This document shows, piece after piece, positions 1 to 2,346 of a DNA stretch of 31,081 bases. The notes beneath the pieces are model-generated. The model was not told where the DNA came from and did no database searches. It saw only the letters and a list, made by a program, of their open reading frames with translations. Position 1 is the first letter of the stretch; each line of letters begins with the position of its first letter. Source of the stretch: a virus (taxonomy: Duplodnaviria > Heunggongvirae > Uroviricota > Caudoviricetes). The stretch lies in the IMG/VR virus record IMGVR_UViG_2526164667_000037. The stretch is one strand, 5' to 3'. The position numbers and the translations under genes are program-made.

Positions 1-981
1 TTATAACGTCACTCCGCCTTTTAGTGGATTCAGAGCGACGGCGTTCTGCAGGTAGTCAGGCGCAAGGTGCGCATAGGTCATTGTCTGCTGAATGCTCGCA
101 TGCCCCAGAATCTGTTGCAGTGCAATTATGTTGCCCCCATTCATCATGAAATGGCTTGCGAATGTATGCCGCAGAATGTGGGTTGCCTGATTGGGAGGTA
201 TATCAGGTTTCACTCTGCGTAAAATCCCGCAAAACTTCTCATAATCTACCTTGAACAATTTGGCGCTGGCCTCCTCTTTAACTTTTTTCTCCAGTTCCTC
301 AGAAATCGGCACTGTTCGCTTTTTACCGTTTTTGGTTTTCAGGAAGGTAACCCTGCAACTTGTAATCTGTGCTGGTTTTAGCGTGGCAACTTCCGTCCAT
401 CTTCCTCCAGTGCTCAGACATAAAAGCGCGACAAGTAAGTCATCACCAGTCAAAACATTTAGCAGTTTTTCGATTTCTGCTTTTTCCAGGAACGTCATTT
501 CAGGGTTAGCCTCCGTCAGTGGCGGCAGTCCGTGAATTGGGTGTTGCCCGGAAAATTCATCCAATTGAATTAATTTTGTGAACATGCCGGATAATCGGTA
601 CATGTCGCGGTTTATCGTTGCAGCACTGATGCCATCACGTAGTCGCATGGAGCGATAATCCATCAAAGCCCTTTTGTTCATCCGACTCACTGGTATATCA
701 CCTATGCCGCTGATGGTTTTGAGCAGATGATTAAACTCTTTTGTCCCATGCTCGTGGTTTTGCCCGTGGTATTTCCACCAGATGTCGAGCAATTCTGTCA
801 AAGTTCGGCGGTCTGCTCGCTGGCCTCCCCATTCTTTCTGACTGGCATTGACGATTGTGTATCGCTCAAATGCTACCGCTTCAGCTTTTCTTTCAAATTT
901 CCTGCGGATGCGTTTTCCATCGCGACCGCGAGGCCTGATATCCACTTCATAACGTCCATCATCGAGCTTTCTGATACTCAT
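1..981 (-). CDS. int: Tyrosine integrase (P2 Int-like), 326 aa
   Basis: Reverse ORF; homology-consistent start MSIRKLDDGRYEVDIRP (ATG at 981-979) rather than the 396-aa extension to 1191; C-terminal HILRHTFASH...YAHL tyrosine-recombinase motifs; position next to the C repressor. Confidence 0.9.
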   Translation of the reverse strand: MSIRKLDDGRYEVDIRPRGRDGKRIRRKFERKAEAVAFERYTIVNASQKEWGGQRADRRTLTELLDIWWKYHGQNHEHGTKEFNHLLKTISGIGDIPVSRMNKRALMDYRSMRLRDGISAATINRDMYRLSGMFTKLIQLDEFSGQHPIHGLPPLTEANPEMTFLEKAEIEKLLNVLTGDDLLVALLCLSTGGRWTEVATLKPAQITSCRVTFLKTKNGKKRTVPISEELEKKVKEEASAKLFKVDYEKFCGILRRVKPDIPPNQATHILRHTFASHFMMNGGNIIALQQILGHASIQQTMTYAHLAPDYLQNAVALNPLKGGVTL

Positions 982-1093: not shown

Positions 1094-1387
1094 TTAGCCA
1101 GTTTTGCGGCCTGAGTGTGACGATGTTGTTTCTTCTGGCCCAGAGTGTGCGACGACCGGGGAAATCTGCCCGGATTCTGGCGCAATCTCATCTGTCATAA
1201 TCCATAATGTATATTTTTTAAACAGCGGTGTGTTGACTACTTGCTTTACGATTTGTAGTCCTGGCTCTTTATGTCCACCTTCATAATTTTTCAACGAACT
1301 AAGTGCTAATCCACTAAGCTCGCAAAATTTTTTTTGTGTTAATCCCTCGGCCTTGCGAATAGCGCGAAGTTTCTCCGATATTTTCAT
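1094..1387 (-). CDS. C: Immunity repressor, P2 C-like but divergent N-terminal half (97 aa)
   Basis: Reverse ORF divergent from cox; HTH-like segment LTQKKFCELSGLALSSLKNYE; C-terminal half KYTLWIMTDEIAPESGQISP...HSGRKTG resembles the P2 C repressor as I recall it. Confidence 0.85.
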   Translation of the reverse strand: MKISEKLRAIRKAEGLTQKKFCELSGLALSSLKNYEGGHKEPGLQIVKQVVNTPLFKKYTLWIMTDEIAPESGQISPVVAHSGPEETTSSHSGRKTG

Positions 1388-1417
1388 TTGACATGGTTCC
1401 CCTATGGAGACTATATT
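1388..1417 (+). promoter_or_regulatory. Candidate early promoter Pe (rightward, into cox)
   Basis: TTGACA at 1388-1393, 18-bp spacer, TATATT at 1412-1417; lies between divergent C and cox as in P2. Confidence 0.5.
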
Positions 1418-1422
1418 CCCCT
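1397..1422. promoter_or_regulatory. Candidate repressor operator: direct repeat TTCCCCT x2 flanking the -10 element
   Basis: TTCCCCT at 1397-1403 and 1416-1422, 19 bp apart; P2 C is known to bind direct repeats spanning the Pe -10. Confidence 0.4.
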
Positions 1423-1534
1423 CAAAAGGTACTTGTTCGGAAACCTTTTGGGGCGTGAGTCCAGCCAGTCAGGAACGATCCTGAGCGGTTTTAAGAGGGC
1501 TGGACGGATAAGATTAGCACGAGAGGTGTGTTTT

Positions 1535-1807
1535 ATGGACGCAAACAACTATGTGGTTAAGTATCCGATTGATGCGGTACACCCTGACAAGTTTGCAGAA
1601 TTGCTCGGAAAACCGCGTACTGCGGTCGTTGAAATGATCAAAGCTAACAAGTTGCCGGTAGTTGAATTTCGCGATCCAACTAAGCCGAATGCTCGTGCAG
1701 GAGACAAACTGGTTTTCATTCCTGAGTTCAATCGTGGTGTGCGTGAGGCATTCTACAACCGACCGATAGAACAGCGGGACGCGTGGCTGCTGTGGATGGG
1801 GCTTTAA
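1535..1807 (+). CDS. cox: Cox-like excisionase/regulator (90 aa)
   Basis: ATG at 1535 preceded by GAGAGG; sequence MDANNYVVKYPIDAVHPDKFAELLGKPRTAVVEMIKANKLPVV...WLLWMGL resembles P2 Cox; the upstream part of the 139-aa ORF is rejected as non-coding promoter region. Confidence 0.85.
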   Translation: MDANNYVVKYPIDAVHPDKFAELLGKPRTAVVEMIKANKLPVVEFRDPTKPNARAGDKLVFIPEFNRGVREAFYNRPIEQRDAWLLWMGL

Positions 1808-1861
1808 ATCATTGCTAAATCAGGCTGTCAGCAACAGGGCGGACGGCATAAGGGGAACATC

Positions 1862-2050
1862 ATGGCGAACAAAAATAGTACGAACCAGTGCGGCACAGAT
1901 AAGGCACTGACGCAGAGAGAAATTTTAGAACTGGCGGTAAAAATCGGGGATTTCATCAAAGAAGAGGCCGGACGCTTAGATAAACAGGTGTCCGGCAAAG
2001 ATATCAGCGTTATCGCTGGCGTACTGGACTTTATTCACCAGTGCGAGTAA
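1862..2050 (+). CDS. Hypothetical small protein (62 aa)
   Basis: ORF with RBS AAGGGGA upstream of ATG 1862; in the early operon after cox; no family recognised. Confidence 0.5.
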   Translation: MANKNSTNQCGTDKALTQREILELAVKIGDFIKEEAGRLDKQVSGKDISVIAGVLDFIHQCE

Positions 2051-2346
2051 TGCCTATTTTTTCGCGAGTTTTTCTTCGAGTTTTTTCTCAAGAACTGGAT
2101 AGATAGCATCAAATAAGCGTGAAGCTCGGGTTTCTACAGGAACAGGCATTACTGATTGTTCAGTAAGTGCTCCGCCAATGACTGAACAGGTCTGCTCAAA
2201 AAGAAACTTGGTTTTTCTAAATCATTCATGTCGTTATTCCTTGTGTTACGAACTACTTGCTTACATTTGGAGTGAAAGCAATTGGATAGTACCACAAGAC
2301 CATGCGCCGGACATGGCTAAAAACCGGCTCTGTTTCAGGAGGAGTT

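Follow-up and report, generated by a model that had tools for sequence, protein, structure and literature searches.

Lysis/lysogeny switch of a Peduovirus prophage, probably built on the Wφ plan, and the predicted operators of its repressor

Genes and promoters at the locus

The window, by which we mean the whole analysed stretch of 31,081 nucleotides, opens with a leftward (lysogenic) operon. In this operon int (1..981, minus strand), encoding a tyrosine integrase of 326 aa (PF24624 Int_N, 98 bits; PF00589, 70 bits), lies downstream of C; it is annotated as phage integrase WP_000027751.1 in Escherichia coli genomes and adjoins cpxP in BEN2908. The C gene (1094-1387, minus strand), assigned as an ORF with homology to P2 C, encodes an immunity repressor of 97 aa with an N-terminal helix-turn-helix (HTH), and its start codon (CAT on the plus strand) occupies 1385-1387. 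An intergenic spacer of 147 nt separates it from the cox gene (1535-1807, plus strand), which codes for a protein of 90 aa matching PF10743 Phage_Cox with 80.2 bits against a gathering cut-off of 27.5. By homology, Cox should act both as the repressor of the leftward promoter Pc and as the excision directionality factor. The order of genes and the promoter layout match those of the annotated P2 and Wφ records, and the region likely serves a Peduovirus (P2-like) prophage as its lysis/lysogeny switch, organized on the Wφ plan. The P2-like character of the replication and late regions, proposed in an earlier note on this DNA, was confirmed, positions 2300-27000 being about 96% identical to Peduovirus genomes over 82-90% of the length of this interval. 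As for the switch itself, positions 1000-1900 had no megablast match among 50,697 phage records, no phage record contained the switch region at 85% identity or above, and no Rfam family matched positions 1000-2400 at E values up to 1. Among 5,426 complete genomes of E. coli, the C/Cox module was found in 46, with poultry as a frequent source, and it is carried by more than 1,000 contigs.

The rightward promoter Pe (1388-1417, plus strand) consists of the -35 element TTGACA (1388-1393), which abuts the C start codon, an 18-nt spacer and the -10 element TATATT (1412-1417), as described for the near-consensus promoter in the earlier note; it agrees with the consensus at 11 of 12 positions. A consensus scan of positions 950-2400 revealed it as the sole promoter-like site on either strand; its position is identical to that of a promoter feature annotated in the Wφ record AJ245959, and both hexamers are kept in nearly all of the 26 related switches. 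In the case of Pc, consensus scans located none, and the best minus-strand matches (TATAGT over the -10 element of Pe and, within cox, a site whose spacer measures 19 nt) were rejected as implausible. Homology with another promoter feature of the Wφ record (1875-1911 of AJ245959) allows a putative Pc to be placed, with low confidence, at 1511..1539 on the minus strand, its -10 element being near TAATCT/TGCTAA (1511-1519) and its -35 element over the cox start codon; counted by hand, it matches about 6 of the 12 consensus positions.

Predicted operators and leader structures

C repressors of the P2 type recognize a pair of direct repeats, non-palindromic and overlapping Pe. In the operators of Wφ, P2 and P2 Hy dis, repeats of 10, 8 and 8 bp recur at spacings of 34, 22 and 26 bp, respectively (PMC1904268), and O1 of Wφ was defined experimentally with plasmid pEE942 (PMC1904263). 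By positional homology to Wφ O1 (TATTGGTGAC), we predict O1 at 1395-1411 (plus strand, GGTTCCCCTATGGAGAC), with the core TGGAGAC (1405-1411) abutting the -10 element of Pe, and, by homology to Wφ O2, we predict O2 at 1428-1444 (plus strand, GGTACTTGTTCGGAAAC), with the core CGGAAAC (1438-1444) at approximately +15 to +21 of Pe and at a distance of 33 bp from O1. The positions of the Wφ half-sites themselves read CTATGGAGAC (1402-1411) and GTTCGGAAAC (1435-1444) here, again 33 bp apart. This predicted pair of the Wφ type is likely to be where the repressor binds. The agreement between O1 and O2 is weak in the window (6/10 for the 10-mers, 10/17 for the units); TGGAGAC followed after 24-28 nucleotides by GGRAAC occurs nowhere else in the window, with 0.01 occurrences expected.

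The conservation of both sites was assessed in 17 distinct switches whose C protein has the recognition helix ALSSLKNYEGGHK (hereafter same-helix relatives). TGGAGAC is invariant in all 17, while the six bases to its left vary, and GG[AG]AAC as well as the O1-O2 distance of 33-34 bp are likewise conserved throughout. Simple linkage to the C gene is ruled out as the cause, because the bases between the C start and O1 vary. An extended -10 element (TGn) was also rejected as the cause of the TGGAGAC conservation, since the bases preceding TATATT are GAC. In relatives L032 and L035 the repeat reaches 7/8 (ATGGAGAC / ATGGAAAC), with 13 of 17 positions shared by the 17-mers. Class-specific 4-mers at O1 and O2 agree at 27 of 40 positions in 10 Wφ-like switches, against 17.5 with shuffled pairing (P = 2e-5), and the same comparison in six independent classes gave 17 of 24 against 9.8 (P = 0.003); in some classes, such as P37 and L018, the 4-mer at the O2 position agrees poorly with O1, and the fit improves with a shifted repeat. 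An unbiased scan placed the best 17-mer direct repeat at an offset of 32-35 from window position 1395 in 18 of the 26 switches, and in Wφ it recovered the known operator. The real target of the repressor may also be larger than a short half-site, namely a composite unit of roughly 17 bp (GGTWYC-N5-GGRRAC) that recurs at intervals of three turns, a suggestion that we make tentatively and jointly with the reading of the leader hairpin given below.

Position 1420-1453 is a hairpin in the leader RNA of Pe and/or Pc, or a palindrome in DNA. Its arms CCTCAAAAGGT and ACCTTTTGGGG (1420-1430 and 1443-1453, no strand assigned) are 11 nt long and 91% complementary, and the 12-nt loop contains most of the O2 core. 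The hairpin is predicted on both strands; in 24 distinct sequences 94.7% of the cells are paired and four pairs are changed on both sides, with a covariation score of 0.216 vs 0.114 that was exceeded by none of 500 shuffles. It thus shows compensatory changes, by which it may be kept across at least 10 immunity classes. Mismatches of the G.T type number 14 against 6 of the A.C type, which is indecisive as to the strand, the sequences not being independent. The inverted repeat was rejected as a required part of the C operator, since deletions of 6 and 10 nt in the homologous left arm of Wφ did not significantly affect repression (PMC1904263). A second leader stem-loop lies at 1459-1505 and comprises the outer stem GTCCAGCC / GGCTGGAC, the inner hairpin TCAGGA-ACGA-TCCTGA (1469-1484) and then GCGGTTTTAAG. 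In 18 sequences 83% of its cells are paired, and its covariation score of 0.158 vs 0.109 was reached by one of 500 shuffles, the preset structure counted; RNAalifold, run on the same mixed alignment, returned no consensus for it. Two further observations bear on conservation in this part of the spacer: GAC before the -10 element and AAC before the right arm of the hairpin occur in all classes, and the complement of O1 (CUCC) can pair with the C Shine-Dalgarno sequence in the Pc leader. Either is another possible cause of conservation.

Switches of the Wφ type, the present one included, may carry an extra layer in the form of a hairpin or palindrome that directly follows the Pe start and holds most of the O2 core in its loop. 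Together with the composite unit, this is a possibility which we would rather doubt than accept at present. The literature searched, which did not extend to the original Wφ switch paper, contained no description of such a layer. Were the hairpin to act in RNA, operator evolution could become coupled to the function of the leader RNA; possible roles are stabilization of the early transcript at its 5' end or a function within the antisense overlap of about 80 nt between the Pe and Pc leaders.

The hairpin is under selection in its own right, and the location of the O2 core in its loop also bears on another reading, in which O1 alone is the operator: a single C dimer would occupy the pseudo-palindrome GGTTCC-N5-GGAGAC (1395-1411) in the Pe spacer, and the conservation at the O2 position would reflect the RNA hairpin loop or another function. 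Such binding would suit the P2 C dimer, which is symmetric and has its helices positioned for two consecutive major grooves (PMC2995052), and Wφ C does bind a single half-site in vitro (PMC1904263). However, repression of Wφ Pe in vivo needs both half-sites (PMC1904263, PMC1904268), the class-specific bases of O1 and O2 co-vary across classes, and the spacing stays at 33-34 bp, so that we regard an operator consisting of O1 alone as unlikely and retain the pair O1 and O2 as the predicted binding sites.

Specificity of the C repressor

The C protein aligns with the structure of P2 C (PDB 2XCJ/2L49) at a phmmer E value of 4e-27, residues 3-97 corresponding to residues 5-99 of P2 C, which, along with the Cox profile match, substantiates the P2-type C/Cox switch recognized earlier. 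According to the profile search, its 97 aa form a single HTH domain, matched over residues 5-52 only by HTH_3 (PF01381, 30 bits), HTH_19 and HTH_31, and have no RecA-cleavable or oligomerization domain. In tblastn comparisons the identity of C was 49.5% with P2 C and 62.9% with Wφ C, and the highest value for any phage record was 63.9%. Most of the divergence falls in the HTH half, in agreement with the earlier statement that the repressor departs from P2 C in its DNA-binding part; the identities of Cox to its counterparts in P2 and Wφ were 45 and 79%, respectively. A single query of genome contigs with C returned distant relatives alone, at most 51% identical, and neither the sequence of the recognition helix nor WP_000703053 was found mentioned in the literature searched.

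Alignment to Tyr31-Ser39 of P2 C (PMC2995052) identifies the recognition helix as LSSLKNYEG (residues 29-37), against LGTVKNYES in Wφ, with three residues differing at positions 30-32. The positions through which P2 C contacts bases are Tyr31, Thr33, Ser35, Tyr36 and Arg41 (PMC2995052); the residues aligned to them are L, S, K, N and H here and L, T, K, N and H in Wφ.

Inside the published immunity groups the identity of C is at least 95% (PMC3448106). By this measure C, at 62.9% to Wφ C, stands outside the Wφ group (class III), and in place of TATTGGTGAC twice, 34 bp apart, which defines the half-sites of that group, the spacer has CTATGGAGAC and GTTCGGAAAC, 33 bp apart. At 49.5% to P2 C and with a spacer that cannot be aligned with that of P2, it is also outside the P2 group (class I). 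The tentative class IX (ΦECO5, E. coli UTI89) was rejected as a match: in the UTI89 prophage the HTH protein is 113 aa long and the protein of the Cox family 173 aa. Since these C identities are far below the 95% or more of the published groups, the specificity is probably distinct from those of P2, P2 Hy dis and Wφ, and the distinct immunity claimed in the earlier note likely holds with respect to these three characterized switches. The C/Cox module is absent from the phage records searched and therefore probably represents a natural uncharacterized class, the comparison by sequence with typed classes having covered I, III and IX.

It is improbable, in our opinion, that the architecture is as proposed but the specificity is not distinct, so that the switch cross-reacts with Wφ and is at least partly homoimmune with it. 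The similarity of the contact-aligned residues and the O1 core, which is one base away from that of Wφ (GGAGAC vs GGTGAC), speak for such cross-reaction, but the 62.9% identity of C lies far below the level seen within typed groups, both half-sites differ from TATTGGTGAC in at least four of 10 positions, a point mutation in each Wφ half-site abolishes repression in vivo (PMC1904268), and the difference of T to A/G in the core is fixed in all 17 same-helix relatives.

A rare immunity specificity would permit phage growth on lysogens of the common classes. The close kinship with Wφ also makes the switch a compact natural experiment on the recognition of direct repeats by a symmetric HTH dimer, in which three residues of the recognition helix and one or two bases of the half-site core are different. 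Practical use would be modest and could lie in the typing of immunity in Peduovirus prophages.

The TTCCCCT repeats and known switches

Two copies of TTCCCCT, 19 bp apart from start to start, are present in the spacer on the plus strand. Copy 1 (1397-1403) is in the Pe spacer and ends 8 nt before the -10 element, and copy 2 (1416-1422) covers the last two bases of this element, the discriminator and the start of the left hairpin arm; hence the repeats and their distance are as the earlier note gave them, while its statement that they flank the -10 element is true only approximately. Both copies are inside the stretch of about 50 bp that would be covered by a Wφ-like complex. Their designation as the operator is probably wrong. 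When sequences were shuffled with dinucleotides preserved, an exact 7-mer direct repeat at a distance of 8-40 bp arose in 5.1% of cases for 1388-1460 and in 16.9% for the complete spacer of 147 nt, and such a repeat was also present in 13% of 73-nt stretches of the window; the repeat-family search did not report the pair as a family. TTCCCCT is over-represented in the window (seven copies vs 2.55 expected), and in two of the seven, those ahead of C and of the ORF at 1862, the complement AGGGGAA is positioned like a Shine-Dalgarno sequence. Copy 1 most likely corresponds to the Shine-Dalgarno sequence of C (AGGGGAA, located 9 nt ahead of the ATG), read on the opposite strand, plus the left flank of O1.

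Among the 17 same-helix relatives only TT.CC is conserved at copy 1, columns 3, 6 and 7 being variable, and the position of copy 2 reads TTTCCCT, TTTGCCT, TTCCACC or TTTGCCC. Relative L014 has TTCCCTT at copy 1, and L015, whose C protein is identical, has TTTCCCT at copy 2; in the more diverged relatives (L020-L036) the two positions match at 3-5 of 7 bases. The stretch containing copy 2 is, in turn, common to heteroimmune phages (TATATTCCCGTCAAAAGG in Wφ vs TATATTCCCCTCAAAAGG here, with TTCCCGT at the copy 2 position in Wφ). We suppose that the two copies are a coincidence of two other constraints, copy 1 being held as the antisense of the C ribosome-binding site and copy 2 as a discriminator and hairpin-arm sequence common to heteroimmune relatives. 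That the heptamers are nevertheless the C half-sites, in a P2-like layout of new sequence and spacing, is highly improbable: the presence of an exact repeat of 7 bp on both sides of the -10 element, the P2 precedent of direct repeats flanking it, and the tie in 17-mer score between the offset-19 and offset-33 pairs in the window are outweighed by a pair frequency within chance, the loss of one or both copies in relatives with an identical or same-helix C, the occurrence of copy 2 in heteroimmune Wφ and P37, the coincidence of copy 1 with the antisense of the C ribosome-binding site, and a drop of the best offset-19 score in relatives to 6-9/17, against 9-13 at offset 33. For operators of this kind, prediction by positional homology could be cleaner than a search for the best exact repeat.

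The model on the Wφ plan, including O1, O2 and the coincidental TTCCCCT, seems to us the probable one. C and int are read leftwards, and the strong promoter Pe directs rightward transcription into cox by way of a structured leader of about 110 nt, each of these elements being either observed or based on homology. A pair of C dimers would shut Pe by means of two direct-repeat units 33 bp, or about three helical turns, apart, so that O1 and O2 would bracket the -10 element and the transcription start. The units would occupy the Wφ half-site positions with the core GGAGAC/GGAAAC instead of GGTGAC, a difference that fits a recognition helix differing at three residues (positions 30-32). Cox, judging by homology, would repress the weak leftward Pc near the cox start.

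Coliphage 186 shares with this switch the face-to-face lytic and lysogenic promoters and an excisionase-repressor of the Cox/Apl type (PMC3448106); however, its CI repressor has 196 aa in two domains and recognizes inverted repeats as well as distal sites, and CII is employed for establishment, none of which has a counterpart here. P2 Hy dis (class II), compared by description, also has a P2-type C repressor binding two direct repeats at Pe (PMC1904268), but there the two half-sites, of 8 bp and at a spacing of 26 bp, lie around the -35 rather than the -10 element. P2 (class I) is closer, with homologous C (PDB 2XCJ) and Cox proteins, convergent Pe and Pc, a Pe whose -35 element is located at the C start, and half-sites arranged as direct repeats around the -10 element. 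The differences are that its C and Cox proteins are only 49.5 and 45% identical to those described here, its half-sites are of 8 bp (TTAGATCT / TTAGATGT) and 22 bp apart, its spacer is 114 nt long and lacks the hairpin, and its integration site is different. The earlier note compared the switch with the P2 arrangement. The spacer is colinear with that of Wφ, and a conserved, class-specific repeat stands 33 bp apart at the Wφ half-site positions.

Judged by sequence, the right comparator is Wφ (class III) rather than P2. The two switches differ in C (62.9% identity; recognition helix LSSLKNYEG vs LGTVKNYES), in the half-sites (6/10 alike between CTATGGAGAC and GTTCGGAAAC, a perfect pair of TATTGGTGAC in Wφ), in the length of the Pe spacer (18 vs 17 nt) and in the 12 nt that are missing here upstream of the cox start, the site of the Wφ Pc; the operators are experimentally defined in Wφ and predicted from sequence here. 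They share the order int-C / cox, TTGACA at the C start, the -10 element TATATT, a spacer whose alignment runs base for base from the start of C past O2, the half-site positions at a spacing of about three turns (33 bp here, 34 bp in Wφ), the same hairpin around O2, a Cox protein with 79% identity and, possibly, the integration locus next to cpxP.

Gene content and kinship of the switch

The window starts at a prophage end, its first base coinciding exactly with the stop codon of int. The int gene (1-981, minus strand) encodes 326 aa with Int_N and Phage_integrase domains, as found by profile search; a 97-aa HTH protein (1094-1387, minus strand) is separated by a 147-nt spacer from cox (1535-1807, plus strand), encoding a 90-aa Cox-family protein. 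Over its full length the HTH protein aligns with the P2 C repressor of known structure (2L49/2XCJ; E = 4e-27). The late and replication regions are P2-like, as the earlier note had it, 2300-27000 being ~96% identical to many Peduovirus genomes, and a megablast of 1000-1900 against 50,697 phage records gave no match. The nearest phage switches by blastn (ENT4, P37 and Wφ) are merely 66-70% identical, and in tblastn no phage record exceeds 63.9% identity to the window C. The C/Cox alignment proposed in that note gave 49.5% (C, tblastn) and 45% (Cox) identity to P2, and 62.9% and 79% to Wφ.

In bacteria the switch module is not rare: it is present in 46 of 5,426 complete E. coli genomes at ≥90% identity, many of them from poultry, and >1,000 contigs encode the identical C protein, generically annotated as 'helix-turn-helix domain-containing protein'. 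In E. coli BEN2908 (L043, 1-3482) the prophage adjoins cpxP; one attB coordinate is common to Wφ and L-413C (PMC3448106). In Wφ, ORF78 directly follows cox, whereas the window has a ~540-bp insertion there (1808-2346), with a 62-aa ORF (1862-2050, plus strand) and a small ORF (2054-2230, minus strand). The latter is frameshifted near its N-terminus by one T at ~2211, missing in comparison with the 58-aa CDS of BEN2908 (WP_000998639.1).

Some related switches have no 90-aa cox called opposite C (L035-L037, with the recognition helix of the window, and L041, with another helix). In L041 its place is taken by a 173-aa ORF, equal in length to the Cox-family protein of UTI89 (L031, 35361-35882). 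These cases point to a shuffling of C and lytic-repressor modules.

The early promoter and the TTCCCCT copies

Pe (plus strand; -35 TTGACA at 1388-1393, 18-nt spacer, -10 TATATT at 1412-1417) agrees with the consensus at 11 of 12 positions, its -35 coming directly after the C start codon. It is the sole promoter-like site revealed by consensus scans of both strands of 950-2400; Pc was not found by these scans, and a putative Pc (~1511-1539, minus strand), with its -35 over the cox start, is placed by homology to a promoter feature of the Wφ record.

The Pe hexamers named in the earlier note are present (1388-1417), and so are its two TTCCCCT copies (1397-1403 and 1416-1422), which it took for the operator of C. 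When 1388-1460 is dinucleotide-shuffled, 5.1% of the shuffles contain some exact 7-mer as a direct repeat at a distance of 8-40 bp; for the full spacer the share is 16.9%, and 13% of the 73-nt stretches of the window have one too, i.e., the pair is statistically unremarkable. In the whole window TTCCCCT/AGGGGAA occurs 7 times vs 2.55 expected (exceeded in 0 of 100 shuffles), two of the seven copies alone sitting in ribosome-binding-site position. Since copy 1 reads AGGGGAA on the opposite strand, ending 9 nt ahead of the C ATG (the same heptamer stands 4 nt ahead of the ATG of the ORF at 1862), and since relatives retain a purine-rich GGAA/GGGA at this spot, it is best read as the C ribosome-binding site in antisense. 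Copy 2 is composed of the -10 end, the discriminator and the first bases of an inverted repeat's left arm, and in Wφ the stretch holding it is nearly identical (TATATTCCCGTCAAAAGG), although Wφ is probably heteroimmune.

Both positions also drift among switches that share the recognition helix of C (ALSSLKNYEGGHK), their C proteins being otherwise 73-99% identical (17 distinct promoter regions from E. coli, Enterobacter, Citrobacter, Salmonella and metagenomes). Copy 1 is TTCCCTT in L014, where the DNA-binding half of C is identical to that of the window, and copy 2 is TTTCCCT in L015, where the whole C is identical; in more diverged relatives the two positions are alike at just 3-5 of 7 bases. 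The operator role proposed for TTCCCCT is thus not upheld, and the pair is most likely a chance repeat.

An out-of-frame ATG (1393-1395, minus strand) precedes the C start by 8 nt. A 100-aa variant from the database (P0034) starts with MSNENIGETSRYSQGRGINTKKN before returning to the C frame, apparently through a frameshift, in which the homopolymeric A/T run at ~1329-1340 may have had a part.

A predicted operator pair of the Wφ style

For only three P2-type switches is the operator position known from experiment (PMC1904268). In P2 and Wφ the half-sites bracket the -10; those of P2 measure 8 bp and lie 22 bp apart centre to centre, those of Wφ measure 10 bp and lie 34 bp apart. In P2 Hy dis they measure 8 bp, lie 26 bp apart and bracket the -35. 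The Wφ half-site is TATTGGTGAC, and the whole Wφ promoter-operator sequence has also been published (PMC1904263). The Pe region of the Wφ record, with half-sites in brackets, is CAT-TTGACA-GTAACC[TATTGGTGAC]T-TATATT-CCCGTCAAAAGGTTGTG[TATTGGTGAC]CTTTTGAG, and that of the window is colinear with it: CAT-TTGACA-TGGTTCCC[CTATGGAGAC]-TATATT-CCCCTCAAAAGGTACTT[GTTCGGAAAC]CTTTTGGGG. On this colinearity Wφ, and not P2, is the proper comparator. The positions of the Wφ half-sites carry in the window an imperfect direct repeat, 33 bp apart.

In the 17 same-helix promoter regions TGGAGAC beside the -10 is invariant, the core at the second position is GG[AG]AAC (with the exception of L033, GGGCAC), and the two are 33 or 34 bp apart in every case. 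From the C start up to TGGAGAC the sequence is variable (column identity 0.53-0.76), so mere linkage to the repressor gene does not account for the invariance. Several relatives show the 33-bp repeat far more clearly than the window, e.g., ATGGAGAC / ATGGAAAC in L032 and L035. In ten Wφ-like switches with differing recognition helices, four class-specific bases precede the shared GAC/AAC at each of the two positions; between the positions they are alike at 27 of 40, vs a mean of 17.5 for random between-class pairing (P = 2e-5); six independent classes give 17 of 24 vs 9.8 (P = 0.003, exact permutation).

A prior-free scan of the first 75 nt of each switch (offsets 10 to 45) placed the highest-scoring 17-mer direct repeat of 18 of 26 sequences at offset 32-35, with a start corresponding to window 1395; Wφ is one of the 18, and its known operator was recovered. 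In the window the offset-33 pair (10 of 17) ties with the best offset-19 pair; in relatives offset 19 falls to 6-9, whereas offset 33 holds 9-13. This outcome suggests a repeated unit of ~17 bp, O1 (GGTTCCCCTATGGAGAC, 1395-1411) and O2 (GGTACTTGTTCGGAAAC, 1428-1444), with copy 1 doubling as the left flank of O1. Such a length would suit one C dimer, the two helices of which reach consecutive major grooves (PMC2995052). Judging from the sequence comparisons, this Wφ-style pair 33 bp apart is likelier to be the operator than TTCCCCT.

Leader stem-loops and immunity specificity

Just past the Pe start, an inverted repeat (arms CCTCAAAAGGT, 1420-1430, and ACCTTTTGGGG, 1443-1453) has a 12-nt loop into which most of the predicted O2 core falls. 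Among 24 distinct Wφ-like switches of at least 10 immunity classes, 94.7% of the cells are standard pairs and four pairs are altered on both sides by compensatory changes, as in L022 (CAAAAGGT/ACCTTTTG to CGAAAGGT/ACCTTTCG) and L025 (AAGGGT/ACCCTT). The covariation score is 0.216 vs 0.114 in shuffles (0 of 500 exceed it), and in slid registers pairing collapses to 24-68%. The hairpin is predicted on both strands of the leader (z-scores -2.6 and -3.1), and the mismatch spectrum (14 G.T vs 6 A.C) leaves the strand undecided. In Wφ, a 6- or 10-nt deletion in the homologous left arm caused no significant change in C repression (PMC1904263); the hairpin is therefore dispensable for operator function. 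It may serve as a 5' stem-loop in the early transcript, belong to the antisense overlap with the Pc leader, or be bound by a protein. Another stem-loop (1459-1505; outer stem GTCCAGCC / GGCTGGAC, inner TCAGGA-ACGA-TCCTGA, then GCGGTTTTAAG) has weaker support and moderate covariation, and resembles a weak terminator or attenuator ahead of cox; Wφ-type relatives have direct repeats CTAGAA(A/G)GGAC instead.

In P2 C, helix 3 spans Tyr31-Ser39, and Tyr31, Thr33, Ser35, Tyr36 and Arg41 are base-contact candidates (PMC2995052). By alignment to it, the recognition helix is LSSLKNYEG..H in the window and LGTVKNYES..H in Wφ, differing at three consecutive positions (G/S, T/S, V/L) and at the helix end (S/G). 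These differences would fit Wφ-like half-sites with an altered core, GGTGAC in Wφ and GGAGAC/GGAAAC in the window. [quoted passage not shown] Class IX also differs from the window switch. The interpretation of the earlier note was thus half right: the TTCCCCT operator most likely falls, and its heteroimmune P2-family switch stands with respect to the three characterised ones. The switch belongs to a well-known kind of system, in which it is likely heteroimmune relative to P2, P2 Hy dis and Wφ.
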